Assembly (NCBI RefSeq): GCF_000012285.1
Contig: NC_007181.1
Coordinates: 930,001 to 962,000, forward strand
Source of the DNA: Sulfolobus acidocaldarius DSM 639
GTDB taxonomy: Archaea > Thermoproteota > Thermoprotei_A > Sulfolobales > Sulfolobaceae
Length of the DNA: 32,000 nt
Reading direction: 5' to 3'
The position numbers were made by a program, and so were the translations under genes. Positions 4,182-30,714 of this stretch are shown in pieces. Every line of letters begins with the position of its first letter. Position 1 is the stretch's first letter. The notes beneath the pieces were generated by a model. It had not been told where the DNA came from, ran no database searches, and saw only the letters and a list, made by a program, of their open reading frames with translations.

Positions 4182-4583
4182 AGACATAAACCTGATATAG
4201 TATTTTTTACACAGCTCTATGTAATTCTTTTTTCCTACATTCTATCAAGGAGTCTGAAAGTGATTATAATAATATCTGACAATTATTGACAAATTTTGAA
4301 CCATGAACTATCTTATAAAGTATTTACTGTAGCAAATTTCGGGGAATATAATTTTTCCTCTACAAGATGTTTTTAAAGAATTTGAGAACCTAAAGTTCTC
4401 TATATGCTTAACGTTGCCTTAAAACTAATCATTATTTGAATAACTTTTTGCCGTCATGTAGAAGTCTTATTTGGTATTAAAGATCAGTCTTATAAAATTC
4501 TCACAGTCTACAATATTTTAAACTGAGATTGAATTCTGAAGATTAAAGGACTTCATAAGATTCCTACTATCCCTAACAGATTT

Positions 4584-4592
4584 CTTTATTAA
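4584..4592 (+). promoter_or_regulatory. TATA-box-like element (CTTTATTAA) for the HerA-like/NurA-like operon
   Basis: Centred about 29 nt upstream of ATG 4617. No SD precedes that ATG, which is consistent with a leaderless first gene. Confidence 0.35.
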
Positions 4593-4616
4593 TGTGTCCT
4601 TACATCTTATAGTATT

Positions 4617-6272
4617 ATGATGGATAGTTTAAGATCCTTAATATCAAAAGCTGATGAGAAAGCGGTAAATTTATCTTCTGATGGCAAAATCATCGGGAGG
4701 GTAACTCGTTTCTCGCATGTGAAAATTGCTGAAGAGCCAGCAATAGCCATAGACATTCCATTTGAGAACTATCTTGAAAAACCTATAGAGAGAGGAGAGT
4801 TTATCGGTATAGTATCAATAATACCAGGGTCAGTTGTTCTTGGAGCAGTAGATCAGATTGCAAGGGCTGATGCACTAGCTAGTTTAGGTATAAGGACAGT
4901 GAGATATTCTGAAGATCCATCAACAATGATAACACCAACCACTATAATATTTTCCCCATTGGGAGAGATAAAGAGTAACGGACAGATATCTCCGAATGTC
5001 TCTGCGATAGATCCACAGTCACCAGTGTTTTTACCTAAGCCTGACCTCATAGAAAAAGTGATAAACATACCCAGCGAAGGGCTAGAAGTAGGTGAGGTGA
5101 CTACTTTTTCAAGACAGACTGACGTAAGGCTGAGACTTGAGGAAAACATATTGAGGAGTCACGTTTTACTGATAGGTACCACTGGCTCAGGTAAGACCAC
5201 ATTTCTGAAGACTATTTTCTTCAGTAATTACAAAAACAAGAAGAGCACGATAGTCTTAGATAGACAAGGAGACTTTGTGAGATTTTTAATAAAGCAGTTC
5301 AAAGAGGGAACAGTGATAGTTCCTCTTACCGTTAAGGCTATGGAGGAATATGGGAGTTTCGAAAATTTGGTTCAGGATAGATATTGTGGTGAGAATACCT
5401 GGCAGGGAGATGATAACTCAATAGTTTGTGAACCTGAACAGGGTAGATTAATAAGTTTCTACCCATTCTCGTTAAGGTTTAAGGACATATTTAGACAATT
5501 GCCCGATTCCTTTCCTTACCTTAGCGACTATGCCAGAGCCTCATGGAGCTCAGTAGTTAGAGCATGTGAAAAATTAACTGAAGTGAGTTCCACATCTCCC
5601 TCGTTTTATAAGATGCTAGAAAGTTGTCTAGGAAGAGCAAATATTAATACCCAGACTTCAGGAAACATCCAAAGGAGTTTATCAGCTTTAATAGAATACG
5701 GAATCCTTGACATACCGAATACAATAACTGGAAGTGAATTAATTGATTTACTAAAAAGCTCACAAAACGTGGTTATAGACCTGTCAATAGTATTAGAAAC
5801 GTTATTTTTGGTGGAGCCGATAAGTGTAATATCGTACAATATCCTGGACATAATCTACAATTATAAGGACAAGATGTATAAAATGAGAAAGAAGGGTGTA
5901 AATGATTCAAATGATATACCACAAACACTCCTTCTAATTGACGAGGCACATGAAATGTTTCCTCAGATATCACAGGAAGTGTCTAAAGCTACTGTTGAAA
6001 AACTAATAAACAAGATACTGAGATTCGGTAGGCAAAGGAACCTAGGAGTAATCCTGGCTACTCATAGTCCTAAAGATTTGAACTCTTTAGTAATTCAACA
6101 GACAAACACTAAATTTATATTTAGAAATGATAGGACAGTTCTTAGGGATTTAGGATTAACAGAGTTTACTGATCTTCTTGAAAGTGCTCCCGCAGGCTAT
6201 TGCTTGGTTAAATCCAGTTTCTTTAACTCGTCATCATTCTTCGCAAAGGTGTATGTACTTGAGGTTAAATGA
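4617..6272 (+). CDS. HerA/FtsK-superfamily ATPase (DUF87/HerA-like, with an N-terminal HAS-barrel-like region)
   Basis: Walker A is LLIGTTGSGKTTFLKTI and Walker B is TLLLIDEAHEMFPQ. The HerA-type C-terminal block is RFGRQRNLGVILATHSPKDLNSLVIQQTNTKFIFR. The N-terminal roughly 170 aa (GRVTRFSHVKI...GEFIGIVS...VVLGAVDQI) resemble the HAS barrel that precedes the ATPase core in HerA. Confidence 0.8.
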   Translation: MMDSLRSLISKADEKAVNLSSDGKIIGRVTRFSHVKIAEEPAIAIDIPFENYLEKPIERGEFIGIVSIIPGSVVLGAVDQIARADALASLGIRTVRYSEDPSTMITPTTIIFSPLGEIKSNGQISPNVSAIDPQSPVFLPKPDLIEKVINIPSEGLEVGEVTTFSRQTDVRLRLEENILRSHVLLIGTTGSGKTTFLKTIFFSNYKNKKSTIVLDRQGDFVRFLIKQFKEGTVIVPLTVKAMEEYGSFENLVQDRYCGENTWQGDDNSIVCEPEQGRLISFYPFSLRFKDIFRQLPDSFPYLSDYARASWSSVVRACEKLTEVSSTSPSFYKMLESCLGRANINTQTSGNIQRSLSALIEYGILDIPNTITGSELIDLLKSSQNVVIDLSIVLETLFLVEPISVISYNILDIIYNYKDKMYKMRKKGVNDSNDIPQTLLLIDEAHEMFPQISQEVSKATVEKLINKILRFGRQRNLGVILATHSPKDLNSLVIQQTNTKFIFRNDRTVLRDLGLTEFTDLLESAPAGYCLVKSSFFNSSSFFAKVYVLEVK

Positions 6273-7491
6273 GGTACAGAAGGAGTTGAGAAAATTAGGG
6301 GAGAAAACCAGACAGAGCGTGAGGAATCTAACTATTCCCTCCCCTCAAAAAACTCAAGTCCCAGGGGAAGAGAGATTTATCATAAATACTCTCCCCGAAT
6401 TTAAGATAGATAAAATAAATATATCCTCATTCCAAAGTGTAAACTTCTCCTCCATTGCCTCTCTGGATACATCAAGCAAACTGCTTAGGTCAACATTTTT
6501 ACACATAGGAATTACAGGTGGTGCAATTAAATCTGAAAGAAACGGTGTATTATATCACCCACTAAATATTCAAGATAAATTCATTTTCCCAATAACTTAC
6601 CTTGATGTTTCCAGGAATTTGGTTGAGGAAAATCTCCAGATGGTCGAGTTGAAAAACGTGATGGGATTTGAATACGCTATAGACGAGGTATTATATGAGG
6701 ACGGAAATGTGAATACATTATACGACGTGGAGGACATGTTAGACGAGGCTAGGCTTTATACGGAAAATCAACTCATGAAGACTATTCAAGATGATTTATT
6801 GATCGTAGATGGACCCATATATCCCACACCTGTTGAGTTAATGCCAACATTCTTTTCCTCCTTCCCTAAGCAAAAAGATGAGATTAAACACTGGGGTAAG
6901 GCAACCCATAGATGGTCTATGGCAAAACTAATCAAGGATAGGATAAGCGTTCTGGAGAACAGAAAGGCTGTAGGAGTCGTCAAGAGACTCGAGAACTCGA
7001 GAAAACTAAATAAGATTTTTCCTGATATGGGTAGATTAACTGACATAGAGGTTCTAGATCTGTTATCAGAGAGACAATGCTCAAATGTAATTTATCCTGA
7101 AATCTGTGTTATTGGTCCATTTAAGTTGACCACTAAGGTAAGTGTTACAAGAGAAGATAGCGGGAACGTCATTTTAAGTGAAAACGAATTGAAAGATAGA
7201 TATGCATACTATGTCATACTTAAACTCTATGGATTTACCAGGAGCTTCTTTAGGATAGAGTCGTTTGACTTGAACGTATTAAATGACTCAATTCCCGTAG
7301 TGTTCGGTAATGTCTCCTACTCTTCATTACCTGTATGGATAGATGAAGTGGATAGGAGAGCAAAAGAGGTTGTTAGAGCGTTATTTTACCTTTCTTTTGA
7401 GGAGTTGAATGACATTCTCTCTTTCCTCCATGATACTAAATTGGAGGCAATAGAAATAGGTAAGACCTTAAGCACTAATGTACCTGAATGA
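6253..7491 (+). CDS. NurA-like nuclease (diverged; RNase-H-like fold predicted)
   Basis: The ORF track opens at 6178. The first ATG is 6253, overlapping the upstream TGA (6270-6272) by 20 nt, but the exact start is uncertain. The motif order matches NurA: IASLDTSS (first acidic site), LLIVDGPIYPTP (DG[SP] site), AVGVVKRLENSRKL, and YYVILKL...FFRIES. Confidence 0.55.
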   Translation: MYLRLNEVQKELRKLGEKTRQSVRNLTIPSPQKTQVPGEERFIINTLPEFKIDKINISSFQSVNFSSIASLDTSSKLLRSTFLHIGITGGAIKSERNGVLYHPLNIQDKFIFPITYLDVSRNLVEENLQMVELKNVMGFEYAIDEVLYEDGNVNTLYDVEDMLDEARLYTENQLMKTIQDDLLIVDGPIYPTPVELMPTFFSSFPKQKDEIKHWGKATHRWSMAKLIKDRISVLENRKAVGVVKRLENSRKLNKIFPDMGRLTDIEVLDLLSERQCSNVIYPEICVIGPFKLTTKVSVTREDSGNVILSENELKDRYAYYVILKLYGFTRSFFRIESFDLNVLNDSIPVVFGNVSYSSLPVWIDEVDRRAKEVVRALFYLSFEELNDILSFLHDTKLEAIEIGKTLSTNVPE

Positions 7492-7493
7492 CG

Positions 7494-7510
7494 AGACAAA
7501 AGTGTCTTTT
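7494..7510 (+). terminator. Hairpin + T-tract directly after the NurA-like stop
   Basis: AGACA-AAAG-TGTCT followed by TTT, beginning 3 nt after TGA 7489-7491. Confidence 0.35.
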
Positions 7511-7766
7511 GAAACTAGGTTAAGTGACCATATGAATTATATTAAATTCCCTTACCGCATTTCAGCCTCTTTGAAACTTACGACTATGACTCTTCATTTA
7601 TAGTATTATGTGTAAAGGCTTAAAGAGGTTTTTAAAACAGTTAAAATCCACTTGGGCACTTAGGAAGAGAATACAATTTTGTTTACCTGTTTTGGAAATC
7701 TTCTATTCTATGAAGGAGAATTTTTGAGATACAGCCTTTAAGGTATTACTGTATAATTTATTAACT

Positions 7767-8138
7767 ATGATGGTACTTGAGAGCTCTCATACATCTCGTC
7801 TGATTGATACATCTCGTCTGATTGACTGCCTCAGGCTCAATTACCCTAAAGAAGTAGCCCACGCTATAGCCTTCCTTATGTCTGTAAGAAATCATGAAAT
7901 AGATCTTTCCGGATTCGAGCCAACTAGAGATTCAGTAGAGTATGTTAACTACGTTAAGGCTAAGAATGGTGGAACAATTAATTCTTCTGAATGTGGCAAA
8001 ATAAAGTTAGAATATAAGGAGGACGTTATCAAGAGTACTGCTAAAAAGTTAAGATATAATTTAGCTGGTGACGGAGTGAAGTTTACTGATGAAGAGAAGA
8101 AGCTCCTGAATGAATTAGGGATAAGATATAATGTGTAG
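7767..8138 (+). CDS. Hypothetical small protein (123 aa), no recognisable domain
   Basis: Intact ORF in an otherwise non-coding 900-bp interval. It has charged, non-repetitive composition after the N-terminus and contains the duplicated hexapeptide TSRLID. Confidence 0.45.
   Translation: MMVLESSHTSRLIDTSRLIDCLRLNYPKEVAHAIAFLMSVRNHEIDLSGFEPTRDSVEYVNYVKAKNGGTINSSECGKIKLEYKEDVIKSTAKKLRYNLAGDGVKFTDEEKKLLNELGIRYNV
7791..7826 (+). repeat. 18-bp in-frame tandem duplication (2 copies, 17/18 identical)
   Basis: ACATCTCGTCTGATTGAT (7791-7808) is immediately followed by ACATCTCGTCTGATTGAC (7809-7826). This encodes TSRLID twice. Confidence 0.9.
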
Positions 8139-10185: not shown

Positions 10186-10875
10186 CTAAAATTCCATTTT
10201 AAATACTTCCTTCTCCTCTTGATATACTGTTAACTCTCTGCTATTCGACTCTAACACTCCATAACACTTATGAAGCTGGGAGCTATCTACTCTCAAGTAT
10301 TTAGTCTGGAACTGGAAATTATGAAAGGTGTAACAACCTTGAGTCATATGTCCGTTAAAGAAAAGTCTTGGTTTTAGCTCTTCTATCCCCTGATATACTA
10401 AGGCACTGCCCTCATCCTCGCTCATTTCCGGATATACTTCTGGGAGGTATGGTGGTTGGTGCATCACCAGTATATCTAATCTATCTACTGCCTTTTTTAT
10501 CCTGTAGAGTGCATTTCTAAATCGTGTGGGAGAGGTCATAGGAATTCCCTTTTTACTTCCTTCCCCTATTAGTCCATTAATTCCAGCAATTTTCAATCCT
10601 CCTACCTCATATACCTTTCCGTCATGCATAACGTAACCTTCGATAAGCGGAAAATTCTCATGATTCCCATAAACGGTAAGTAACTTTTTCACTTTAGACA
10701 TTATATTTAAGAAGTCATTAGGTGTCATTCCATCATCCCAATCACCAGCTGATATGAGAACCTCTGGCTTAACCCTATCAATAACGTTTAATAACCATTC
10801 TACCGCAACGGACTCATTATAATTCCTGTAGATTCTGAAAGACTTATGAACATCACTTACTAAAAGAAATCTCAT
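10186..10875 (-). CDS. Calcineurin-like metallophosphoesterase (229 aa)
   Basis: The canonical motif series is present: LVSDVH, AGDWDDG, YGNHEN, VMHQPP, NGHMTQG. Confidence 0.85.
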   Translation of the reverse strand: MRFLLVSDVHKSFRIYRNYNESVAVEWLLNVIDRVKPEVLISAGDWDDGMTPNDFLNIMSKVKKLLTVYGNHENFPLIEGYVMHDGKVYEVGGLKIAGINGLIGEGSKKGIPMTSPTRFRNALYRIKKAVDRLDILVMHQPPYLPEVYPEMSEDEGSALVYQGIEELKPRLFFNGHMTQGCYTFHNFQFQTKYLRVDSSQLHKCYGVLESNSRELTVYQEEKEVFKMEF

Positions 10876-11099
10876 AGTATTAAATACCAGTTTTGCGTTT
10901 TAAACTTTTCTTTCTAGAAATAGACTCACAAATACTAGCGTAAACTTGCAATAATCTAATACCCTGATATAAGTGTTCTGTTAACTTTAGTCTTCTACGA
11001 CGTTTTTGAGCGTTGTTTTGGAGCACTTGAAGTTGGAAGATTTCTTAAAATTTCTTAGCACTTGCTTATAAAACATATAAAAAGACTGAACATTATATT

Positions 11100-11127
11100 A
11101 ACTGGTGGGTCACCAGTAACTGGTGGG
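11100..11127. promoter_or_regulatory. GC-rich repeat cluster between the putative TATA and the ATG of the ATPase gene (candidate operator)
   Basis: AACTGGTGGG occurs twice (11100-11109 and 11118-11127). ACTGGTG-GGT-CACCAGT (11101-11117) is a 7-bp inverted repeat. The cluster lies just downstream of an ATTATATTA element (11092-11100) and ends 6 nt before ATG 11133. Confidence 0.3.
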
Positions 11128-11132
11128 GGTAC

Positions 11133-12203
11133 ATGTTATTCGACTTACATCCTAAGATAGAATTAAGAGAGTTGTTTGGCAGAGGGACAGAGGTAGAATA
11201 TATTATACAACAGGTGATTTCGAGAAATTGGGTCATAATTAGTGGACAAAGGGGAATAGGAAAGACTAGTGTTATGAAGGTTAGTATAAATGAGTTAAGG
11301 AGGAGAAATTCTACTGACGGAATATACTTAAACTTAAGAGGAGTTAAGACACTGAGAGAATTATTATCTCTGCTTATTTCAGAAATAAATAGAAATAAAC
11401 TTTTCAACATATTCAATGTTAACGTTAACCTAAACTTTGGTCCTTTAGGCGTAGAACTCAAGAGAGGTAGATTGACAGTCCAAAGAGGTTTACTGGAGTT
11501 ACTCCTGTCAATAAATAGAGATATGGTTATAGGGCTAGACGAGGTTCAGGAACTTTCCCCTGTTAGTAAACCTTTACTAGATGTCTTGGGAAACGTCTTT
11601 ATGAGTAATCCTAAAGTTAGGTTCATTTTTTCCGGATCCTACGTAGGTTTAGTCAAGGCATTATTAAGTCCTAAGGAAGGGTCACCTCTACTTGGGAGAC
11701 CGCCAGTCGAGGTTAGATTGAGACCTTTTGACAAAATTACATCAATTAATTTCTTGAAACAGGGTATGATGGAGCTGGGTGTCGACTTCGAGAATAATGA
11801 GGCTGAGGAAGTGGTCAATAAACTTGATGGAATAGTAGGTTGGTTGACTTTATTTGGTAATAATTATGCCATAAGAAAGTTGAACTATGAGTATTCATTA
11901 CAGTCTACCATAGAAGAGGGCAAGAGAATAATGTTAGAGGAGTTAAATCATTTCCTTGAAGGGAGGAATAGAGAGCTATATTTAGCCATATTATCCTCTC
12001 TTAAAGTTACCAAGAGATGGAAGGACATAAAGTTCGCTACCTCTGTGAAGTTGAAGAGGAGTATTGATGATAAGGAGTTTAGTTCTGCCCTCGAATCTTT
12101 GATTAAATACAATTTCATAGATAAAATTAAGGAAGGTGAATATCAGATAACAGATCCTATTTTAAGAGAAATAGATTTCGACCATGTGGGTAGAACGGTC
12201 TAA
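11133..12203 (+). CDS. 'Archaeal ATPase' family P-loop NTPase with a C-terminal winged-helix-like domain
   Basis: FGRGTEVEYI...VIISGQRGIGKTSV (Walker A) and VIGLDEVQEL (Walker B). The family-typical tail is LDGIVGWLTLFG followed by a C-terminal region of about 100 aa (LYLAILSSL...KEFSSALESLIKYNFIDKI) resembling a wHTH. Confidence 0.8.
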   Translation: MLFDLHPKIELRELFGRGTEVEYIIQQVISRNWVIISGQRGIGKTSVMKVSINELRRRNSTDGIYLNLRGVKTLRELLSLLISEINRNKLFNIFNVNVNLNFGPLGVELKRGRLTVQRGLLELLLSINRDMVIGLDEVQELSPVSKPLLDVLGNVFMSNPKVRFIFSGSYVGLVKALLSPKEGSPLLGRPPVEVRLRPFDKITSINFLKQGMMELGVDFENNEAEEVVNKLDGIVGWLTLFGNNYAIRKLNYEYSLQSTIEEGKRIMLEELNHFLEGRNRELYLAILSSLKVTKRWKDIKFATSVKLKRSIDDKEFSSALESLIKYNFIDKIKEGEYQITDPILREIDFDHVGRTV

Positions 12204-20398: not shown

Positions 20399-21964
20399 TT
20401 ATCTTCTCCTCAACAACAATATAACGAGTACTGCAACAATGATTACCACGACAACCACAGTAGCTATAATGCCTAAAGATAATCCTGAACTAGAGGAAGC
20501 AGGAGTTGATGAAGGCACTGTAGATGATAATGATTGAGTAGTAGTTGTGGAACTTTGTGAACTCGTTGAAGTAGATGTAGAGGATGAAACACTCGATGAA
20601 GAGGTGCTGGATGTGGAAGAGGTTGTAGTGGATGTTGTGGAAGTAGTCTGGCTAGTGGTCTGAGTAGTAGTTGAACTTGTTGTTGATGTCGTAGTAGTAG
20701 AAGATGTACTGGTAGTAGTAGATGTAGAGGTTGTAGTGGATGTTGTGCTTGTCGTCGTTGTGCTTGAAGAATATGAAAACGTTGGCGTTAACACATTAAT
20801 GAGCGAGATATATGCATTGTTAGCTTCAGTCAGCTGAATCTGATATAGGTATCCATTAGAGTAAAAAGCCTGTAATGGGTATGCGTATGAGGAGGTTGAA
20901 TTATATATGATATTTCCGTTAGTGTAGTTAACTAATATGTAGTTATAACTATATTTATTTTCTATCACATTATTAATTACGGCATAACCACGTCCAAAGG
21001 TAACTTGACTAGGTAAAGCTAGACCAGGGATAGGGAAGATATTATAGTCGAGGTTTTCTAAATTTAATTTAATCAAATTAGTCCCTATTACAAAGAATGC
21101 TGTATTATTTTCCACTAAATTTCCTGATGGGATTGCCCCTCCACTAGGAATTTCTTTCAATATTTTACCATTAGTAACGTTGATTACCATTGTTGATGTT
21201 GAATTCGATACTATTAGGTAATAGTCCTTTATTAACTCAACACCAGATAAACTGCTTAAACTTATGTTCCATTTACCCAAGAGAGTTATCTCTGATTTGA
21301 AATGCAAAGCTGAAGGGGTTACGGGACCTAGAAACGAAGAAATCAGTTGGGATGGTGGCGCTAAATAAATTATTAGTATATTACCATAACTAGAATTAAA
21401 GAAACTATATATAGTCTGGTTGTAAAATCTATATATTACTTGGTTTGGAATATACAATACACTTTGATTACCGAGTAAAGTTAGATAAATTAAACCATGC
21501 TGAGTAGGATATGCCACGGTATAGTTCCTGAAGAACTGGGAGCTGACTACTTTAAGCTTTGATATTATAGAGACGTTACTATAATATAGATTCTTAAAAG
21601 TACCAGAGAATAAGCTACTTAAGGATGACCCATTTATATATACTGAATCGACCACTGAGTAGGAACCATTGTAGGGTATAACAGTTGATTCTACACTGAA
21701 ATTTATTGGAGGACTCACTGTTAGTATTTTAACTAAATTAGATGAGTTAACATAATACACATTCGAAGAATATGATATTCCCTGAGATACTATAGATTGC
21801 TGGTTAACTGCTAAGAGTATCCCGCCATTATAACCTTGGACATCAGTTACAAAACCTGTAACTGAATATGTAGCCTGCGTTTGTAATTCAACTGAGGCAA
21901 TGGCTACTCCAGACAGTAATGTTGCCATAATAATTATGAGGGCTATATTAGTGGTTTTCCCCAT
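20399..21964 (-). CDS. Secreted, heavily N-glycosylatable surface protein with a Ser/Thr stalk and a C-terminal TM anchor
   Basis: N-terminal signal/anchor (IALIIIMATLLSGVAIA). A beta-rich body of about 380 aa is full of N-x-S/T sequons. It is followed by a Ser/Thr tract of about 98 aa, a hydrophobic helix and an LLLRRR terminus. Confidence 0.7.
   Translation of the reverse strand: MGKTTNIALIIIMATLLSGVAIASVELQTQATYSVTGFVTDVQGYNGGILLAVNQQSIVSQGISYSSNVYYVNSSNLVKILTVSPPINFSVESTVIPYNGSYSVVDSVYINGSSLSSLFSGTFKNLYYSNVSIISKLKVVSSQFFRNYTVAYPTQHGLIYLTLLGNQSVLYIPNQVIYRFYNQTIYSFFNSSYGNILIIYLAPPSQLISSFLGPVTPSALHFKSEITLLGKWNISLSSLSGVELIKDYYLIVSNSTSTMVINVTNGKILKEIPSGGAIPSGNLVENNTAFFVIGTNLIKLNLENLDYNIFPIPGLALPSQVTFGRGYAVINNVIENKYSYNYILVNYTNGNIIYNSTSSYAYPLQAFYSNGYLYQIQLTEANNAYISLINVLTPTFSYSSSTTTTSTTSTTTSTSTTTSTSSTTTTSTTSSTTTQTTSQTTSTTSTTTSSTSSTSSSSVSSSTSTSTSSQSSTTTTQSLSSTVPSSTPASSSSGLSLGIIATVVVVVIIVAVLVILLLRRR
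20483..20776 (-). repeat. Low-complexity Ser/Thr-coding tract (protein stalk)
   Basis: Minus-strand codons give SYSSSTTTTSTTSTTTSTSTTTSTSSTTTTSTT...SSTPASSSS. On the plus strand this appears as degenerate GTAGTAGTAG/GTTGTGG-type repeats. It is coding low complexity, not a spacer-repeat array. Confidence 0.9.
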
Positions 21965-22096: not shown

Positions 22097-22870
22097 TTAA
22101 AATAATGTCTTGTATCTACGTTGACGCTCATAAATCCAGTCCTCTCTCTCAGAATGACAATGGACTCCATATCTTTCACATAAGTCCTTTATTTCATTCT
22201 CTTTTTCCTCCCACCATGACTGATTGCAATCGAAGTTAGGCAAACCCCTATAATTATTGTATTTATCATATACTATGAATGATGAAGTCTCGCTGGCTAA
22301 CTTCACTATTTCCTCAAAGCCACTGTCATTAACCCCTTTTATAATAGGTCCTAGAAAAATCCAGGTTCTAACGCTTCTAGATAACTTCTTAATTGATTCT
22401 GCTCTTGCCTTAGGGGGAGGTGCTAGAGGCTCAATATATCTACTCACAACCTTATCCAGTGTTGTAATGGTTAAACCTACATCCACCTTATCACTATACC
22501 TTGACAACAAGTCCAGATCCCTGACAACCATAGGTGACTTAGTCTGAATAGAGACCCTAAAGCCATGGGATAGGAGAACCTCTAAGCTTTTCCTGGTAAG
22601 TTTATACAGCCCCTCTACTGGTTGATAAGGGTCTACTATTGTGGATACTCCTACTACTCCTCTCCTATACTTATAGACCTCCCTCTTAAGAACATCCACA
22701 ATATTCCTCTTAATCGTTATAACCTCTCCCCATTTATCACTCACATACCTTTGGGCATAACAATAGATACAGGAAAATCTGCAGTTGTTATACGGGTTTA
22801 AGGAATAATCAATTTCCTTTAAACCAGACTTACTCAGTGCACTTTTAACCTCAACTTCCCTAATTATCAT
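22097..22870 (-). CDS. Radical SAM protein, SplB/'DNA repair photolyase'-like
   Basis: CX3CX2C cluster motif NNCRFSCIYCYA at the N-terminus of a 257-aa TIM-barrel-sized protein. Its start ATG (22870-22868) shares one base with the upstream TAA. Confidence 0.8.
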   Translation of the reverse strand: MIIREVEVKSALSKSGLKEIDYSLNPYNNCRFSCIYCYAQRYVSDKWGEVITIKRNIVDVLKREVYKYRRGVVGVSTIVDPYQPVEGLYKLTRKSLEVLLSHGFRVSIQTKSPMVVRDLDLLSRYSDKVDVGLTITTLDKVVSRYIEPLAPPPKARAESIKKLSRSVRTWIFLGPIIKGVNDSGFEEIVKLASETSSFIVYDKYNNYRGLPNFDCNQSWWEEKENEIKDLCERYGVHCHSEREDWIYERQRRYKTLF

Positions 22871-24063
22871 TAAAATAACCTCGACCTAAAGAGCTTTACC
22901 ACATATGATATCTTTAACCACTCTTGAAGATTCACTTTCAACTCTCCCTTAACTCTTCTTAATGCCTGGTCAAGCGTATCAAATACTTCTGGTTTCTGCT
23001 TAAACATTTCCCTAATGTTTTCCCTCACAAACCAAACTCCTACAGGTAAATTAAATCCGGGGTAAATTTCTCTCCATAGTATCACCATAGCTTGTCTCTT
23101 CCTTAGACGAAGACTTTCAGCAACCCCCAACCTAGAAGCATAATAACAGCCACCAATTTTAGGATATGTCCTCCTTCCCCTATACCCCTCATAATCTAAC
23201 TCCAATGCTACTTCCCCATGACCAAACTGGTTCCACGTGCTTCCTGGAAACCATGCTTCGCCCCACTCAAAAGCCCAATTCCCTGGTATTAGAATTCCTA
23301 TAAAGAGATTCTTCATATGCCTCCTTACATAAACTTCGATCTTGTCAATGCTCTCAAAATGCTTTAATTCCTCTATTAAGCTGTCAGAGACCAGTTTGTC
23401 AACGGCTGTTATACTCCGCCTCGTTGGAACCAATTTCCTCTTAACCCCTAGAACTCCTACACTTAAAAGACGTGATATTACGTTAACCTCGACCTTATTA
23501 CTGTAAAGAGTTATTACAGCATCTTTAGACTTAAGATCCTTATCTTCATAAACTCTTTCCACTATTCTTTGAGGTGCTGAAAGCGTACCTAATTTGAACT
23601 CCCTTATTGGTGCTGAAGGACCTATAGGTGGTAACGTTTCGTCTAAGACAACCTTTCTAGGTTCCTTAGCAAATTCCATTTCTATCTCAGATGGTCCTGA
23701 TGAGATTGAGAGAGTCTGGACATCATGTAAAAATCTTTGGGGATTATTAGCATCAGTAACCCTGAAGGACTCCCCTCCTCTCACTAGACTTAGCCTTAAA
23801 GATAAAAAGGTGTTAAGATCCATGTTAAGCCAAGTTTTAGGATCCTCGTATATTGATGTATCATCTACCACTGGAGGGGCTGATGGATAAACACTCACTT
23901 TTGGGTATCCATATCTTCCCACAAATATTGAGGGGGGAGATGAACCAACCATATCTTTAGGTACCACTATCTTCTTAGTTATACTCTTAACTACGATGGG
24001 GCAATAAGCCAGTCCGCATAAGTACTTTGAGCTTCTGCATATTACACAGAGTCTAGGATCCAT
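22870..24063 (-). CDS. Nre-family-like protein (archaeal DUF650/DUF651 type, N-terminal Cys4 zinc finger)
   Basis: N-terminus MDPRLCVICRSSKYLCGLAYCPI (CxxC...C...C) followed by GSSPPSIFVGRYGYPKVSV, as I recall for archaeal Nre proteins. Size is 397 aa. The C-terminus carries a partial PIP-like motif, QEWLKISY. Confidence 0.55.
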   Translation of the reverse strand: MDPRLCVICRSSKYLCGLAYCPIVVKSITKKIVVPKDMVGSSPPSIFVGRYGYPKVSVYPSAPPVVDDTSIYEDPKTWLNMDLNTFLSLRLSLVRGGESFRVTDANNPQRFLHDVQTLSISSGPSEIEMEFAKEPRKVVLDETLPPIGPSAPIREFKLGTLSAPQRIVERVYEDKDLKSKDAVITLYSNKVEVNVISRLLSVGVLGVKRKLVPTRRSITAVDKLVSDSLIEELKHFESIDKIEVYVRRHMKNLFIGILIPGNWAFEWGEAWFPGSTWNQFGHGEVALELDYEGYRGRRTYPKIGGCYYASRLGVAESLRLRKRQAMVILWREIYPGFNLPVGVWFVRENIREMFKQKPEVFDTLDQALRRVKGELKVNLQEWLKISYVVKLFRSRLF

Positions 24064-24541: not shown

Positions 24542-25000
24542 CTAAAAAAGCAAATTAACAACAGCATAGTCAATATGGTAGGTTATCTGTCTTTCCAATA
24601 TCTCTGCTGGCTTATTTCCGACTGCCCCTACAGGTACGATCCAAGTTCTCAACTCGATATTTCCAGTCTCCTCAAGCTTATCATCACTCAACTTAGCTAA
24701 TTCCTTTCCTTTTCCTGCCTTCAATGTCTCCAGGATAAAGTTATCAAAATCAATATCGATTTTACCATAGTAAGGCGTTCCTGGAAAATGGGACAAGCCT
24801 CCTGTACCAATTATAGCAACCTTCTCGTTCTCTGGTCTTTTCTTAGCTACAATTCTGGCAATAGCCCTACCTAATTCAAAGCATCTTCTTACGGGCATTT
24901 TAGGTTCCACGTTGGCATTTAAGTGGATAGGTACGATTGGAATTGAGTAATCCCTGAATATGTCTAGTAAGGGTATGAAGAATGCGTGTGAAAGTAGAAC
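24542..25000 (-). pseudogene. 5'-truncated remnant of a class III (LigB-type) extradiol dioxygenase
   Basis: The translation ...LLSHAFFIPLLDIFRDYSIPIVPIHLNANVEPKMPVRRCFELGRAI...VAIIGTGGLSHFPG...ELRTWIV matches only the C-terminal half of LigB-family subunits. The frame has no ATG upstream of the recognisable region and runs into the opposing gene fragment. It stays open to 25069 by chance. Confidence 0.6.
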
Positions 25001-25009
25001 TTCACCAGG

Positions 25010-25806
25010 AGAGGAAGCAAAGGTCAGAATCGGAAAGGGTAAGGTGGAAGTAATTACTGGTTCAGGGCATCATGGTCAGGCTTACCTATCCTCCTTCTCC
25101 AAACTCGTAATTGAGGAGCTCGGCGTCTCAGAAAATGTTATTTAGGTTTACACAGGTACCACTGATGGTTTGAAAGAAGGAGTAGGTAGCTACGGGAGTA
25201 GAGCATTGTCGGTAGGAGGATCTGCCATAATTGAAGCCTGTAGAAATTTGAAGAAAAAGCTAAACGGAACAGGGGATAGACTTGGATAAAGCCCTCCATG
25301 GAGAACAAATCTATGAGTCAGAGGTATACGTTAAGGCTGGAGATGTGTTCGCACCAGGATTTCACATATCCGTAGTGGACATTGATTTGGAAACCTTAAC
25401 ACCAAGAGTAAGAGAATACGTTGCAGTGGATGATGTAGGAAGAGTTGTCGTAAAAGAAGAAGTTGAAGGGCAAGTTATAGGTGGAGTAATGCAGGGTATA
25501 GCGCAAGTGCTCTGTGAGTGGGCAACTTATGATGAGGAGGGAAATCCAACATTCTCTTCTATAGCTGATGCTGGCATGCCTTCTCCAGAGGAGTTTACTT
25601 GGAGAGTTATTGTTGACGAGGTCGAGTTTAAGTCTGGACTACTTAGTGGTACAAGAGGCGTAGGAGAGGCTGGTAGTATTGGAGGACTAGTTGCAACCTT
25701 TATTGGTCTTGAAAAAGCTATAAAGGATAAATTTGGTAGGAAGGTAAAGTTACAAAGAACACCAGTTACACCAACATATTTAATGGAACTTTTAGGGAAA
25801 AGTTAA
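25010..25806 (+). pseudogene. 5'-truncated, disrupted remnant of a molybdopterin-binding large subunit (CoxL/xanthine dehydrogenase/aldehyde oxidoreductase family)
   Basis: AKVRIGKGKVEVITGSGHHGQAYLSSFSKLVIEELGVSENVI is followed by TAG (25143-25145). The same frame then continues VYTGTTDGLKEGVGSYGSRALSVGGSAIIEACRNL to TAA 25287-25289. A +1 shift leads into ...FAPGFHISVVDIDLETL...AVDDVGRVV...GQVIGGVMQGIAQVL...GTRGVGEAGSIG...TPVTP. Only about the last third of such an enzyme is present. Confidence 0.65.
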
Positions 25807-26886: not shown

Positions 26887-29800
26887 ATGCAAGTCAAATT
26901 CTTGATACCAATATCCATACTCTTAATCTCTATAAGTGGAATATTAAGTCTAGGGATCTCAAGCCCCTCAAATCAGAACACATTTTTTAATTCTTATACT
27001 AATGCAAAACTCTTACCATCTAATACCTTACTGACACTAACATTTTTCATCCCGCCCAAGAACCTAAACATGCTATATTATACTGCAGAAGAAGTTGCAA
27101 ACCACCAGATATCTCCCCTAACTCCACAACAAATTATTAAGGAATTTTCTCAGCCAAATAAAGTAACTTCTCTAATTAATTTCCTAGAAAGCAATGGTTT
27201 TACAATATATTATTCTAGCCCATTTGCAGTTGTTGCTACTGCCACTGCAGGAAAAATAGATAACGTGTTTAGTACCGAGTTAGGTTTATTCAGTTATAAC
27301 GGACATGTATACTATAAGCCTCTTACATCTCCTTCATTTAGTCTAACAGGGATTATAGTAGGTGGACTTGACAACGAAACTGCCTTCCAGCCCTATTTTA
27401 TGCAATTGAACAATACGACCCATCCAGCTTTTCAGTTCTCTTACCTAGGGTATGGTCCAAATGCGTTAAGGACTGCATATAATGTTACAGGGACAGGTAA
27501 GAACGTGACAATTGCAATAATAGATGCTTTTGGAGACCCTCTGATATATCAAGATGTAAAGAGTTTCGATCAGATATACGGATTACCACCAGCAAACTTA
27601 AGTGTTTACGCTGTAGGTCCTTACATTCCTGAGCAGGGAATAGCAACAGGTTGGGATATAGAGACAGCTTTAGATGTGGAAGCGGCCCATGCTATGGCTC
27701 CTTATGCCAAAATCAATTTAGTGGTCTCCTCAGATAGTGGTCCAACGCTTTATGCGGCTGTTGATTATGTTGTTACGCAAAAACTAGGAGATGTTGTATC
27801 AATGAGCTGGGGGTTATCTGAAAACTTATTCGCCGCTTCAGGATTCTACTACTTTATAAACGGTCAACCATTTCCCAACTATCCGTACTTAGACTATTAC
27901 TTCGCACTAGGAACTGCTGAGGGAATAACTTTCTTCGCATCGTCAGGTGATACTGGTGCTTATGGCGATTCACTGACCACATACGGTGGTGCATCATTCC
28001 CTGCTACTTCTCCATTCGTTACAGCGGTTGGCGGTACAACTTTGTATTTAAGCTCTGGAAAAGCCTATGAGACAGCCTGGAGTGTATTGCCACAATATTT
28101 TGAGTATGCTGGTACAGTTTCCTCTGGTGGTGGATATAGTACATTTTTCCCTAGACCATGGTACCAAGACGGAGTTATAAACTCCTCATTTAGAGCTGTC
28201 CCTGATGTGGCAGCAGATGCCAATCCATATACCGGATTTAATATTACAGTTTTGGGCTCTGAAGAAATAATTGGAGGAACTAGTTTAGCTTCACCACTCT
28301 GGGCTGGTATGTTGGCTGACATTATCTCTCAGCTAGGTAGACCAATAGGTCTACTCAATCCAATCCTCTACTGGATATACAAGAATCCTGCACTTTACCA
28401 AGAGTCATTCCATCAAATCACCCTTGGTTACAACGGAGAATTTTATGCTAAGCCAGGATATAATTTAGTTACCGGCTTAGGAACTCCTAATGTCGGAGAA
28501 TTATTAAATGCTATTCAGCAATACTTAAAGACAAATAATTTAGAAATTTCAGTCACTACAAATGGTACAATCCCGTGGTATATGTATAATAGTACTGTAA
28601 GTGTAATAGCATACATAACCTATCCTAACGGCACCATAGTGAGCCAAGGAACATTTAGTGCATATATTCAGACTACCAGTGGGACAGTAACAACTATACC
28701 CTTATCATTTAATGGTACTGATTGGGTCGGAAGTTTTAATATACAACCTGGAATGACACCAAATATATGGTCTATAATTGTCAATGGTTCATCAGCAGGC
28801 TTTTCGGGAACTTCGAGCTACGATATAGATGTTGGACAATCAATAAACATCTTATCTCCAATTCCATTCCCCTATGGTCCTCCTTTGTCACTCAACACAC
28901 CATTTGGCGTAGTAGCTCAAATATATAATCCAGATGGAACTCCGGCTGTTAACCAAACAGTTAACGTTTACCTGCTAAAGAATGGAAAGGTTGTGGAGAG
29001 CGCTGTATTAACTCCAACATCTCAACCTGGTGAATATGTTGGTCAGTTAGCCCTTATTACTCCTGCTGAACAGGGCACATATATACTAGTTGTTAACACG
29101 TCTTATGGTAGTGCGTACACTTATGTTTACTTTGGAAACATAATAGAAGGTGCAGTATACACTCCAATAAATACTGGATTTCCTGGAGTATCTCCTGGAC
29201 AGAATATAACGCTATTTGCTTTTACTCTAACTCCAGAAGGGACAGGTCAGTTGTCCTCGAACGTGTCAGCATTTATATACAACCAAAATGGTCAACTAGT
29301 ATCAACAGTTAATTTAACTCAAGCTCCTGAGATAACTCTATTCGGCGTATTTAACTTCTTTGGATTATATTACGCGAACTTCACAATACCTTCAAACTTT
29401 ACTCCAGGATTCTATAGTGTAATCATTCAATCACAGGCGAGAACAGGAATCGGGGTCAGCACAGGTGAGTTCTTCACGTCTTTTTATGTCTCTCCAGCAT
29501 CACTAAGTTACAATATAAAAGTAAAAGGAATAGCTTATGAAGGGCAACACATCAAAATATATGCCAACATAACGTATACTAACGGTACTGAGGTGGAATA
29601 TGGGATATTTAACGCAATTCCGTTGCCTTCATCCATAGCATTTAAGTCTTATTTGGTAGCTACGAATTACTCAGTACCGCTCCAATTTAACTCCACTCTG
29701 GGACTCTGGGAGGGAACTTTCCAGATACCCTCAGTACTTGGGGCAAATTCATTCTATCTAGGATATCCGCCCTACACTTTATCTGGACCTTGGACAGTAT

Positions 29801-30714
29801 ATATATCAGGAGTTTCTGCTAACGGTAACCCAATATCTTCAGGTCCAACTTACTTCAACGTTCTTCCATACACCTACTTAGGTAGTAAAGTGATAATTAC
29901 TAGTCAAAACTACACGAGTGTGCCGTTACTCTCATCCAATTCTCTGAGTAATGTTTACGTAGGTAATCTAGAACTAATAAATGTTAATATCTCCCTGAAT
30001 AATGTTGTAGTAGGTAACTTGACAGTGGTTAACTCACAGGTTGGAGTAAGTAGTTCAACATTAAATTCACTGACCGCGAAGAACTCTAAATTATCAATAG
30101 CCCAATCCACAATAGGTGGTGATCCTGACAGTGTAGCGATACAATTATATAACTCTAGCCTCATACTGACTTCTGTAGTAATAGCAAACTCGACTTATGC
30201 ATTCAATCAGGTCAATAGTAATGTTGAGCTAAACGGAGTAAGCCTATCGAACGTACAACATGTATCTACAATATCACCTCCTACCATATCACCTCAATTT
30301 GTAAATATAACGCAGAAAATAAGTGCACTAAACCTAACTGTCTCCGGTTATAACGCTAAGATACTGAACGTTTTAGTGAATGGAATATCGACAAGGTACT
30401 CAGTTATTAGCTCATCACAAAATTCCACAACGATTTCAATACCCTTCTCTTCATCCGCTTTACCGTCGGGACAATACACTATAGTGGTTATGACATATAA
30501 TGGATTACCGTATAATGTGAGTGCTACGGTATACAATGCTTATCCTCAAATATCACTATCAAGTTCATTGTCTAACGCGACAACCTCACTATCAAGTAAA
30601 ATATCCAGTAATGCGTCTGACGTAGCGTTTTATAGAAATATCACCATAGCTTCCCTAATAATAGCCATAATATCATTGATCCTTGTCATATACTTGTTGT
30701 TAAGAAGGAGGTGA
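26887..30714 (+). CDS. Surface-anchored sedolisin (peptidase S53) with pro-kumamolisin-type propeptide, tandem Ig-like repeats, a beta-helix-like segment and a C-terminal TM anchor (1275 aa)
   Basis: Signal peptide at the N-terminus, then a propeptide region (SPLTPQQIIKEF...LESNGFTI...). The S53 catalytic residues are all present: E259/D263 in GWDIETALDVE (27661-27675), oxyanion D355 in ASSGDTGAYG (27949-27951), and S466 in GGTSLASPLWAG (28282-28284). The C-terminus is a hydrophobic helix followed by LLLRRR. Confidence 0.85.
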   Translation: MQVKFLIPISILLISISGILSLGISSPSNQNTFFNSYTNAKLLPSNTLLTLTFFIPPKNLNMLYYTAEEVANHQISPLTPQQIIKEFSQPNKVTSLINFLESNGFTIYYSSPFAVVATATAGKIDNVFSTELGLFSYNGHVYYKPLTSPSFSLTGIIVGGLDNETAFQPYFMQLNNTTHPAFQFSYLGYGPNALRTAYNVTGTGKNVTIAIIDAFGDPLIYQDVKSFDQIYGLPPANLSVYAVGPYIPEQGIATGWDIETALDVEAAHAMAPYAKINLVVSSDSGPTLYAAVDYVVTQKLGDVVSMSWGLSENLFAASGFYYFINGQPFPNYPYLDYYFALGTAEGITFFASSGDTGAYGDSLTTYGGASFPATSPFVTAVGGTTLYLSSGKAYETAWSVLPQYFEYAGTVSSGGGYSTFFPRPWYQDGVINSSFRAVPDVAADANPYTGFNITVLGSEEIIGGTSLASPLWAGMLADIISQLGRPIGLLNPILYWIYKNPALYQESFHQITLGYNGEFYAKPGYNLVTGLGTPNVGELLNAIQQYLKTNNLEISVTTNGTIPWYMYNSTVSVIAYITYPNGTIVSQGTFSAYIQTTSGTVTTIPLSFNGTDWVGSFNIQPGMTPNIWSIIVNGSSAGFSGTSSYDIDVGQSINILSPIPFPYGPPLSLNTPFGVVAQIYNPDGTPAVNQTVNVYLLKNGKVVESAVLTPTSQPGEYVGQLALITPAEQGTYILVVNTSYGSAYTYVYFGNIIEGAVYTPINTGFPGVSPGQNITLFAFTLTPEGTGQLSSNVSAFIYNQNGQLVSTVNLTQAPEITLFGVFNFFGLYYANFTIPSNFTPGFYSVIIQSQARTGIGVSTGEFFTSFYVSPASLSYNIKVKGIAYEGQHIKIYANITYTNGTEVEYGIFNAIPLPSSIAFKSYLVATNYSVPLQFNSTLGLWEGTFQIPSVLGANSFYLGYPPYTLSGPWTVYISGVSANGNPISSGPTYFNVLPYTYLGSKVIITSQNYTSVPLLSSNSLSNVYVGNLELINVNISLNNVVVGNLTVVNSQVGVSSSTLNSLTAKNSKLSIAQSTIGGDPDSVAIQLYNSSLILTSVVIANSTYAFNQVNSNVELNGVSLSNVQHVSTISPPTISPQFVNITQKISALNLTVSGYNAKILNVLVNGISTRYSVISSSQNSTTISIPFSSSALPSGQYTIVVMTYNGLPYNVSATVYNAYPQISLSSSLSNATTSLSSKISSNASDVAFYRNITIASLIIAIISLILVIYLLLRRR
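30707..30714 (+). promoter_or_regulatory. Shine-Dalgarno GGAGGTGA embedded in the last codons and stop of the sedolisin gene
   Basis: GGAGGTGA is complementary to the Sulfolobales 16S 3' end. It lies 7 nt upstream of ATG 30722. The intergenic gap is only 7 nt, which indicates an operon. Confidence 0.5.

Follow-up and report, generated by a model that had tools for sequence, protein, structure and literature searches.

The discovery of nurA and herA was made in Sulfolobus acidocaldarius, where both genes are co-transcribed with mre11 and rad50 (PMC2288612); the canonical operon of this species includes mre11 as Saci_0052 and herA as Saci_0053 (PMC2246294). The canonical herA and nurA genes are reported as essential in Sulfolobus islandicus (PMC4351679), and the NurA-HerA pairs of bacteria have been implicated in repair and in interaction with RecJ (PMC4663267, PMC9960219). 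Other pairs have been linked to short palindromic repeats that are clustered and regularly interspaced (CRISPR). Bernick et al. (2012) described paralogous pairs of nurA and herA in Crenarchaeota; Pyrobaculum has at least three, including one that forms a nurA-csm6-herA cluster beside CRISPR arrays, an arrangement given for Pyrobaculum/Thermoproteales. Vestergaard et al. (2014) named 'Cas HerA' and 'Cas NurA' (14 members, for example Tagg_0814/0815), which occur with types I and III only and are always associated together. Two PADLOC profile models, PDLC01055 and PDLC01056, derive from clusters 57 and 58 of Shah et al. (2018). In S. islandicus, the nurA/herA operon SiRe_0094/0095 is bound and regulated by Csa3a and has been proposed to supply DNA for CRISPR adaptation (Liu 2017). 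Here we analyse a pair of overlapping herA-like and nurA-like genes in a 32-kb stretch of the S. acidocaldarius DSM 639 genome (NC_007181.1, positions 930,001 to 962,000), hereafter the window, whose own numbering is used for all coordinates in S. acidocaldarius.

Our analysis suggests, with a probability of roughly 0.55, that these genes encode a second, paralogous HerA-NurA machine of the CRISPR-associated 'Cas-HerA/Cas-NurA' family, serving the processing of foreign DNA for CRISPR immunity. The novelty implied by the first-pass annotation of the window, which had presented the genes as a candidate uncharacterised system, is not supported, because pairs of this kind were described bioinformatically in 2012, 2014 and 2018 by the three groups cited above. 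In literature searches, no experiments turned up on NurA-HerA of the CRISPR-associated kind or on the S. acidocaldarius pair itself.

The family assignment was clearest for the HerA-like protein, which scored 155.9 bits against PDLC01055 ('HerA, type III coevolved'), compared with 50.6 bits for the next HerA model and 63 for mad8. Orthologues from S. islandicus, Sulfurisphaera and a Desulfurococcaceae metagenome-assembled genome (MAG) reached 160-168 bits on the same model. The canonical-like HerA of that MAG (locus L012), a protein with a HAS-barrel Pfam match, served as a control and scored 193 bits on PDLC04105 against 65 bits on PDLC01055, indicating that the latter model discriminates. 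The NurA-like protein matched PDLC01056 ('NurA, type III coevolved') at 8.7e-11 and 39.7 bits and is a peripheral member of that family. An exhaustive search with a hidden Markov model of the NurA-like protein against 1.84 billion cluster representatives retrieved 140 proteins at E <=1e-3; PDLC01056 was matched by 65 of the 70 relatives scanned among them (best 2e-127), and the canonical-like NurA of L012 gave no match to it. A word-indexed profile search yielded nothing beyond Sulfolobales. Judged by these sequence matches, the pair belongs to a small 'Cas-HerA/Cas-NurA' family of thermophilic Thermoproteota.

The gene neighbourhoods of relatives link several branches of this family to CRISPR systems. 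A profile scan of genome contigs with the NurA-like alignment located 10 loci. A narrower alignment located loci of more distant relatives in metagenomes, and in about 21 of 24 such loci nurA is followed by an overlapping herA. In two metagenomic loci (L039 and L032), the pair lies directly after a same-strand type I-A cassette (cas7, cas5, cas3 helicase, cas3 HD and cas8a/CsaX), and in a third (L031) cas3 HD and cas8a/CsaX are directly upstream of it; L044 and L043 have the same type I-A layout, judged by the sizes of their open reading frames (ORFs) only. A Csx1/Csm6 gene adjoins herA in L021, and a CARF7/Csm6-like gene follows herA in L023, with ORFs of the same size in these places, by ORF layout only, in L024 and L025, respectively. 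Three other loci (L040-L042) present a different arrangement, in which the Cas-type nurA-herA pair follows three genes of the same strand, one for an SF2 (superfamily 2) helicase of ~750 aa that resembles SngC, BrxH and Cas3 and two conserved ones (~450 and ~300 aa) that have no family matches; this may be a further variant module.

In a neighbour-joining tree of HerA-like proteins, a rough one without support values, a long branch parts the whole family from canonical-like HerA, and the Sulfolobales proteins form a monophyletic clade that is sister to the cas-embedded clades. Identity is about 31-33% between Sulfolobales and type I-A-embedded HerA-like proteins, and 36-41% between Sulfolobales genera, which points to fast divergence. 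The window pair resembles the described Cas-HerA/Cas-NurA accessory pairs in that both of its proteins match the family models best and a HerA is paired with a NurA. It differs from them in three respects: the S. acidocaldarius pair and most other Sulfolobales pairs stand away from any cas or CARF gene, the Sulfolobales proteins form a clade of their own, and the order herA then nurA with an overlap is specific to the S. acidocaldarius lineage, other members having nurA then herA or convergent genes.

The HerA-like protein of 551 aa is identical to S. acidocaldarius WP_015385849.1/AGE73336.1 and shares a cluster with the DSM 639 product AAY80480.1 (550 aa). Its proposed identity as a HerA-superfamily ATPase was borne out by Pfam matches to PF01935 (DUF87/HerA central domain; 1.7e-26, residues 156-409, whole model covered) and HerA_C (6.4e-6, above the model cut-off), and by Foldseek. 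The structure model, a monomer prediction with a predicted local distance difference test score (pLDDT) of 86.5, had as its best Foldseek match the T. kodakarensis HerA from a NurA complex (9x1m_A, 1.3e-21, template modelling (TM) score 0.64); further matches included 4d2i_A (S. solfataricus HerA, 3.6e-21) and 7wrx (D. radiodurans HerA, 3e-18). The predicted overall fold thus matches that of solved HerA proteins, to which identity is about 12-16%. For the HAS-barrel-like N-terminus claimed in the first-pass annotation, the indications diverged: strands 27-118 form an N-terminal beta-rich domain in the predicted structure, and full-length Foldseek alignments to HerA chains gave TM 0.55-0.64, but the Pfam HAS-barrel model PF09378 gave no match, and support for this putative domain comes from the structure model and these alignments. 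An RFGRQR motif at residues 469-474, the R-x-G-R-x-R block of the family, is a candidate arginine finger or sensor.

Structural likeness to antiphage ATPases raises an alternative, in which the pair would be a CRISPR-independent system against viruses or plasmids comparable to Sir2-HerA and DUF4297-HerA, with HerA sensing foreign DNA ends and activating NurA, possibly in abortive infection. DUF4297-HerA, Sir2-HerA/Nezha and TdpAB are among the top structural neighbours of the HerA-like protein (Foldseek 1e-19 to 1e-21) and share with the window pair the combination of a HerA-fold ATPase, presumably hexameric here as it is there, with an effector enzyme; the best PDB sequence match is the antiphage HerA 8xau, and the two genes form a self-contained module. 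However, all HerA structures, that of D. radiodurans included, scored nearly alike, with the repair HerAs ranking first, and the antiphage NCBIfam equivalogs NF042944 and NF042943 yielded 42.4 and 33.7 bits against cut-offs of 850 and 800. The effector is moreover a NurA nuclease rather than Sir2, DUF4297 or TdpB, the distribution is not patchy, no defence island surrounds the genes, and relatives are wired into cas operons. Such a stand-alone role appears unlikely, and the comparison with Sir2-HerA and DUF4297-HerA drawn in the first-pass annotation reduces to a shared HerA fold.

The best NCBIfam name for the HerA-like protein was CedD, at 43.6 bits against a cut-off of 600, with CedB at 30.5 bits against 700. 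Both identities were ruled out by these sub-cut-off scores, and CedD is a different gene (saci_0667). The S. acidocaldarius protein is also the shortest of its clade (551 aa vs about 600-640 aa), and lacks ~56 residues of a helical insertion after residue 329 that are present in other Sulfolobales orthologues.

The second protein, in its 410-aa form starting at TTG 6259, is identical to AAY80481.1. The motifs by which it had been called NurA-like (IASLDTSS, LLIVDGPIYP, VGVVKRLENSRKL, YYVILK and FFRIES) are all present at the expected codons, as are those quoted for the HerA-like protein, and the call itself was confirmed. The NurA model PF09376 matched at 6.1e-17 and 62 bits (cut-off 21), a partial match of residues 138-371 to model positions 60-253. 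A structure model built from a 13-sequence alignment (pLDDT 87.5, predicted TM score 0.88) had NurA proteins as its 12 best Foldseek PDB matches (9x1l_G, 2ygk, 3tai/3tal/3taz and 1zup; E 1e-6 to 1.5e-3), spanning NurA from T. kodakarensis, S. solfataricus, P. furiosus and T. maritima, followed by Argonaute PIWI, RNase HI and EndoV. A NurA or RNase-H-like fold is therefore predicted. Two sequence-based comparisons did not recover the relation: the family profile matched no NurA among PDB sequences, giving chance matches to nitrite reductase only, and no relation emerged when the family was compared with a canonical-like NurA by hhalign. The NurA assignment consequently rests on Pfam, PADLOC and the fold search.

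The acidic active site of the NurA-like protein appears intact in the sequence and in the model. In P. furiosus NurA (PfNurA), the metal ligands and catalytic residues are Asp51, Glu105, Asp126 and His411, and T. maritima NurA has an acidic residue in place of the last (PMC3300031). Candidate counterparts (Table 1) were identified by order and spacing on corresponding secondary-structure elements, not by residue superposition, and the Glu-to-Asp spacing is 21 residues in both proteins. D164 and E165 also belong to the invariant set of the NurA-like family alignment, E165 being conserved in at least 90% of 70 more distant relatives. The protein had been described as strongly diverged, with about 70 extra N-terminal residues; the divergence holds, but the extension was overstated, as the first catalytic Asp is D72 compared with D51 in P. 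furiosus NurA, and more of the difference lies in an insertion between D72 and E165 (93 residues vs 54).

These features bear on the possibility that the pair is a decaying or non-catalytic paralogue, either a relic without nuclease activity or a Ced-type membrane DNA-transfer ATPase. The divergence of the NurA-like protein is great enough for its family profile to miss every solved NurA at the sequence level and for hhalign to leave it unaligned with a canonical-like NurA, CedD heads the NCBIfam matches of the HerA-like protein, and the missing ~56 residues could be read in the same way. The catalytic D/E/D/H-D residues and the Walker motifs are nevertheless invariant across the family, both ORFs are intact in every S. 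acidocaldarius record found (82 contigs with the HerA-like and 109 with the NurA-like product), CedD scored 44 bits against a cut-off of 600, and no transmembrane segment was seen in the HerA-like model. We consider decay or loss of catalysis very improbable.

That the window pair is a second, paralogous one was claimed in the first-pass annotation and is confirmed by the canonical herA-mre11-rad50-nurA operon elsewhere in S. acidocaldarius (Saci_0052/0053). No Mre11- or Rad50-like gene flanks the pair among the annotated ORFs of the window. The reverse case, a housekeeping pair detached from mre11 and rad50, was ruled out by the documented canonical operon and by the NCBIfam equivalogs for repair HerA, which gave 43.1 bits for NF040819 (cut-off 970) and 29.6 bits for NF040937 (cut-off 800). 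Compared with canonical archaeal HerA-NurA (4D2I, 2YGK, 3TAI, 9X1L-9X1P), the window pair has the same two predicted folds, catalytic residue set and ATPase motifs, and presumably also the hexamer-plus-dimer architecture and DNA threading. It differs in lacking linkage to mre11/rad50, in missing the repair equivalogs by >750 bits, in lacking a Pfam HAS-barrel match, in carrying the insertion between the first Asp and the Glu, and in being non-essential in at least one lineage (Stygiolobus, below). With the NurA-HerA operons of Deinococcus radiodurans and Thermus thermophilus it shares the two-gene format without mre11/rad50 and a strong structural neighbour (7WRX, 3e-18), although it belongs to another sequence family and another domain of life.

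The S. islandicus genome also carries an orthologue of the window pair, with convergent genes at about 540 kb in strain REY15A (locus L001). Since the canonical pair is essential in S. islandicus despite this paralogue, the two pairs are not redundant. Its position and orientation also make this orthologue a different pair from SiRe_0094/0095, which is likewise an extra nurA/herA pair alongside the canonical operon. On the same strand and directly upstream of the nurA-like gene in L001 is a gene for a 259-aa protein (11075-11854, minus strand) with weak matches to the winged helix-turn-helix (wHTH) part of CasR/Csa3/CARF3 models (E 3e-9 to 2e-4), in which no CARF domain was detected. This protein could be a dedicated regulator of the pair.

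In the Sulfolobales and Desulfurococcales, the herA-like and nurA-like genes are adjacent in every locus examined except in Stygiolobus, despite three orientations. Nine Sulfolobales loci have a convergent pair whose 3' ends overlap or abut (S. islandicus, A. hospitalis, Ca. Aramenus, Sulfurisphaera sp. S-194, S. javensis, Sulfolobus sp. A20 and two MAG contigs), and the window shares its co-directional, overlapping order only with the closest relative, a MAG of the Sulfolobaceae (51-54% identity). The surrounding genes vary by genus and are mostly metabolic. In Sulfurisphaera sp. S-194 (L016), however, a gene for Csx1 (CARF+HEPN; PDLC01957, 1e-206) is the immediate upstream neighbour of the nurA-like gene and has the same orientation. 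In Stygiolobus the two genes are unlinked, and the herA-like gene of S. caldivivus is split by a frameshift (550 + 84 aa; L014), which implies that the HerA-like protein is dispensable there. That gene lies ~2.6 Mb from the nurA-like gene, beside transposase fragments and a MazE-PIN pair. At the orphan nurA-like gene of S. caldivivus (AP024597.1, L015), an 80-aa MJ1316-domain gene (7266-7508) overlaps the stop codon; this domain (PF04457) is described as recognising RNA ends with cyclic phosphate.

The Desulfurococcales pairs have nurA followed by a herA of about 700 aa, often with a divergently oriented DHH phosphoesterase gene upstream (L012, L020), and genes for PolB and an XPD-like helicase lie near the pair of Stetteria. 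In the Desulfurococcaceae MAG (CAYZRH010000003.1, L012 7791-14817), two different nurA-herA pairs are arranged in tandem in one apparent operon, in the order Cas-type nurA (446 aa), herA (686 aa), canonical-like nurA (392 aa), herA (526 aa, with the HAS-barrel match) and a 294-aa gene. The last is conserved and recurs after herA in L013. A search of the Sulfolobales loci for a conserved third gene found none; the 294-aa gene follows the herA-like gene in two Desulfurococcales loci only.

These neighbourhoods would also be compatible with a second housekeeping processor of DNA ends, one that would apply the same translocase-nuclease mechanism to the cell's own DNA in back-up or specialised resection, at stalled forks or on DNA imported or exported in ultraviolet (UV)-induced exchange, with no functional tie to CRISPR in the Sulfolobales. 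The pair is broadly retained in Sulfolobales and Desulfurococcales amid metabolic or replication and repair genes (PolB, XPD-like helicase, DHH phosphoesterase), its GC content is host-like, mobile elements carry no copies, and a CARF neighbour occurs in a single Sulfolobales locus; in addition, Beltran et al. proposed that HerA-NurA makes single-stranded DNA for Ced/Ted transfer. Against this stand the sister clades inside type I-A operons or beside CARF effectors, a HerA-like protein whose score on the CRISPR-coevolved model exceeds that on every other HerA model by ~100 bits, and the essentiality of the canonical pair in S. islandicus despite the paralogue, which indicates the lack of redundancy. 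The text of the UV-TFB3 iModulon study on S. acidocaldarius also makes no mention of the genes, the S. caldivivus herA-like gene is frameshifted, and divergence between Sulfolobales genera is fast. We regard a housekeeping role as possible, but not as the probable one.

A CRISPR-related role is favoured over it by the cas- and CARF-embedded branches of the family, the Csx1 neighbour in strain S-194, the dispensability in Stygiolobus and the absence of redundancy with the essential canonical pair. Several observations nonetheless weigh against this role. The window contains no CRISPR array and no cas, CARF or other defence gene, and a CARF neighbour was found in only one of the ~14 Sulfolobales and Desulfurococcales loci examined. 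The Sulfolobales clade looks vertically inherited, and its members lie amid metabolic genes, have host-like GC and lack plasmid or virus copies, a pattern that fits cellular housekeeping as well as defence. The NurA-like protein reached TM scores of only 0.30-0.47 against solved NurA, at about 10% identity, its score on PDLC01056 was modest (39.7 bits), and literature searches found no expression or phenotype data for these genes. The defence role suggested in the first-pass annotation thus keeps an indirect kind of support, in that the family is CRISPR-associated, while the window itself offers no defence gene, the GC content is normal and the plasmid and phage collections searched hold no homologue of the NurA-like protein. 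Recent horizontal acquisition was ruled out by the GC content, which equals that of the neighbouring genes.

The molecular mechanism, a hexameric translocase working with a dimeric nuclease of RNase-H type, is well supported by fold, motifs and conserved pairing, with assembly and activity projected from the solved HerA-NurA complexes. The herA-like and nurA-like genes would be co-transcribed and translationally coupled, and the HerA-like protein would assemble into a hexameric ring ATPase, with a NurA-like dimer docking on the face formed by its N-terminal beta-barrels. A free or nicked DNA end would enter through the NurA-like dimer and be pulled through by the HerA-like ring at the expense of ATP, while the NurA-like sites (D72, E165, D186 and H393/D394) would cut one or both strands by two-metal chemistry of the RNase-H type, so that linear DNA would be processively degraded or resected.

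The biological role is less certain than this mechanism. Following the association of the family, the Cas-HerA/Cas-NurA machine of S. acidocaldarius would aid CRISPR immunity by processing or destroying linear DNA that is foreign or broken, for example by clearing targets after type I-A or type III attack or by supplying prespacer fragments, as RecBCD and AddAB do in bacteria. Its action would be in trans, the genes having departed from the cas neighbourhood. A more specific and rather doubtful proposal would make the Sulfolobales clade a trans-acting, DNA-shredding arm of CRISPR immunity and an archaeal counterpart of RecBCD/AddAB, degrading the DNA of invaders once type I-A Cas3 or type III Cas10 has nicked it and feeding spacer acquisition by Cas1-Cas2-Cas4. 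Gating by cyclic oligoadenylate or by 2',3'-cyclic-phosphate RNA ends might apply, as hinted by the Csx1/Csm6 neighbours, the CasR/Csa3-like wHTH gene of S. islandicus and the MJ1316-domain gene of S. caldivivus.

The locus layout is summarised in Table 1. The two ORFs reported in the first-pass annotation were read directly from the sequence, together with their overlap of 20 nt in different frames (ATG 6253 vs TGA 6270-6272), which shortens to 14 nt if TTG 6259, the start used for AAY80481.1, is the start codon. The GGTG motif within the 3' end of the herA-like gene has optimal spacing for TTG 6259, better than for ATG 6253, and suggests translational coupling of the nurA-like gene. The AT-rich spacers and the neighbours, an amino-acid permease and a PF04185 phosphoesterase, were also as reported; the GC content of the two genes is 0.377, higher than in either spacer. 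The expression signals fared less well. The TATA-like box TTTATTAA is well placed and would suit a leaderless Sulfolobus transcript of the herA-like gene, but the motif occurs no more often in the window than expected by chance (9 found vs 5.9 expected). A stem-loop followed by T4 is present directly after the nurA-like stop and is a possible termination signal, but it is weak and was not called by a terminator scan, which is of a bacterial type and uninformative for archaeal signals; further T5 tracts lie downstream at 7629 and 7721. Scans for Rfam families, tRNAs and tandem repeats found nothing relevant near the pair, and no tRNA or Rfam family in the window.

Table 1. Features of the herA-like/nurA-like locus and of its predicted products, in window coordinates
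Feature	Position	Strand	Description
Upstream spacer	4182..4616	no strand	435 bp, AT-rich, GC 0.276, no ORF >=50 aa
TATA-like box TTTATTAA	4585..4592	+	25-32 nt upstream of ATG 4617
herA-like gene	4617..6272	+	551 aa, FtsK/HerA-superfamily ATPase (from the ORF list)
Walker A GTTGSGKT	5175..5198	+	HerA-like residues 187-194; invariant in 28 family members
Walker B LLLIDEAHE	5928..5954	+	HerA-like residues 438-446; DEAH core invariant in 28 aligned relatives
RFGRQR	6021..6038	+	HerA-like residues 469-474; R-x-G-R-x-R block of the family, conserved in 28/28 aligned relatives
Shine-Dalgarno-like GGTG	6248..6251	+	inside herA-like 3' end; 1 nt before ATG 6253, 7 nt before TTG 6259
nurA-like gene	6253..7491	+	412 aa from ATG 6253, stop 7489-7491; 410 aa from TTG 6259
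NurA-like D72	6466..6468	+	first core strand; invariant in 70 relatives; PfNurA Asp51 by position
NurA-like E165	6745..6747	+	helix 159-177; >=90% conserved; 21 residues before D186; PfNurA Glu105
NurA-like D186	6808..6810	+	end of strand 182-187, in LLIVDGP; invariant in 70 relatives; PfNurA Asp126
NurA-like H393-D394	7429..7434	+	start of C-terminal helix; D394 invariant, H393 >=90% (Sulfolobales clade); PfNurA His411
Downstream spacer	7492..7766	no strand	275 bp, GC 0.309
Weak stem-loop GAGACA/UGUCUU, then T4	7493..7510	+	6-bp stem with one G-U pair, -4.9 kcal/mol; directly after nurA-like stop

Just 3' of the nurA-like gene is a 123-aa ORF (7767-8138, plus strand) that matches no Pfam family and is not kept beside the pair in other genomes. 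Near its 5' end, a perfect 18-bp tandem duplication (ATACATCTCGTCTGATTG x2.1, 7789-7825) encodes a repeated SRLID peptide. A copy of TTTATTAA lies only 2 nt ahead of its ATG, and the annotated start may therefore be wrong.

Elsewhere in the window, a divergent pair at 10186-12203 consists of a 229-aa calcineurin-like metallophosphoesterase (minus strand) and an 'archaeal ATPase' of 356 aa (PF01637; plus strand) that carries a winged helix of MCM_C type. The 521-aa ORF at 20399-21964 (minus strand) has a sub-threshold RIFIN match as its sole match and an imperfect 18-bp tandem repeat at 20694-20743, and is probably a low-complexity surface or membrane protein. At 22097-24063 (minus strand), an archaeal Nre gene (Nre_N + Nre_C, 397 aa) is followed by a radical-SAM gene (257 aa), the stop of one and the start of the next sharing one base; Nre proteins are PCNA-associated DNA-repair factors. 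Two short ORFs look, by their truncated matches, like gene fragments or pseudogene remnants: that at 24542-24910 (minus strand) matches only the C-terminal part of LigB (positions 148-259 of 269), and that at 25282-25806 (plus strand) only that of MoCoBD_2 (positions 194-280 of 283). After the second, ~1 kb without an ORF of at least 100 aa precedes the next large gene (26887-30714, plus strand). Its product, of 1275 aa, has a pro-kumamolisin activation domain at the N-terminus, matches MG2 (alpha-2-macroglobulin-like) weakly and is presumably a large secreted protease of the sedolisin type.

Lists of accessory genes at CRISPR loci have included HerA-NurA pairs since 2012. Our analysis adds an intact member of the family without cas linkage, present as an operon of its own in a model archaeon open to genetics, and shows sister clades to be firmly built into type I-A interference operons and CARF modules. 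One consequence concerns annotation, as the name 'DNA double-strand break repair nuclease NurA', which some records use, is unsuitable for these genes as a default. With the S. acidocaldarius pair, it becomes possible to ask in a concrete system how a dedicated translocase-nuclease contributes to CRISPR immunity, or to DNA metabolism, in organisms without RecBCD.

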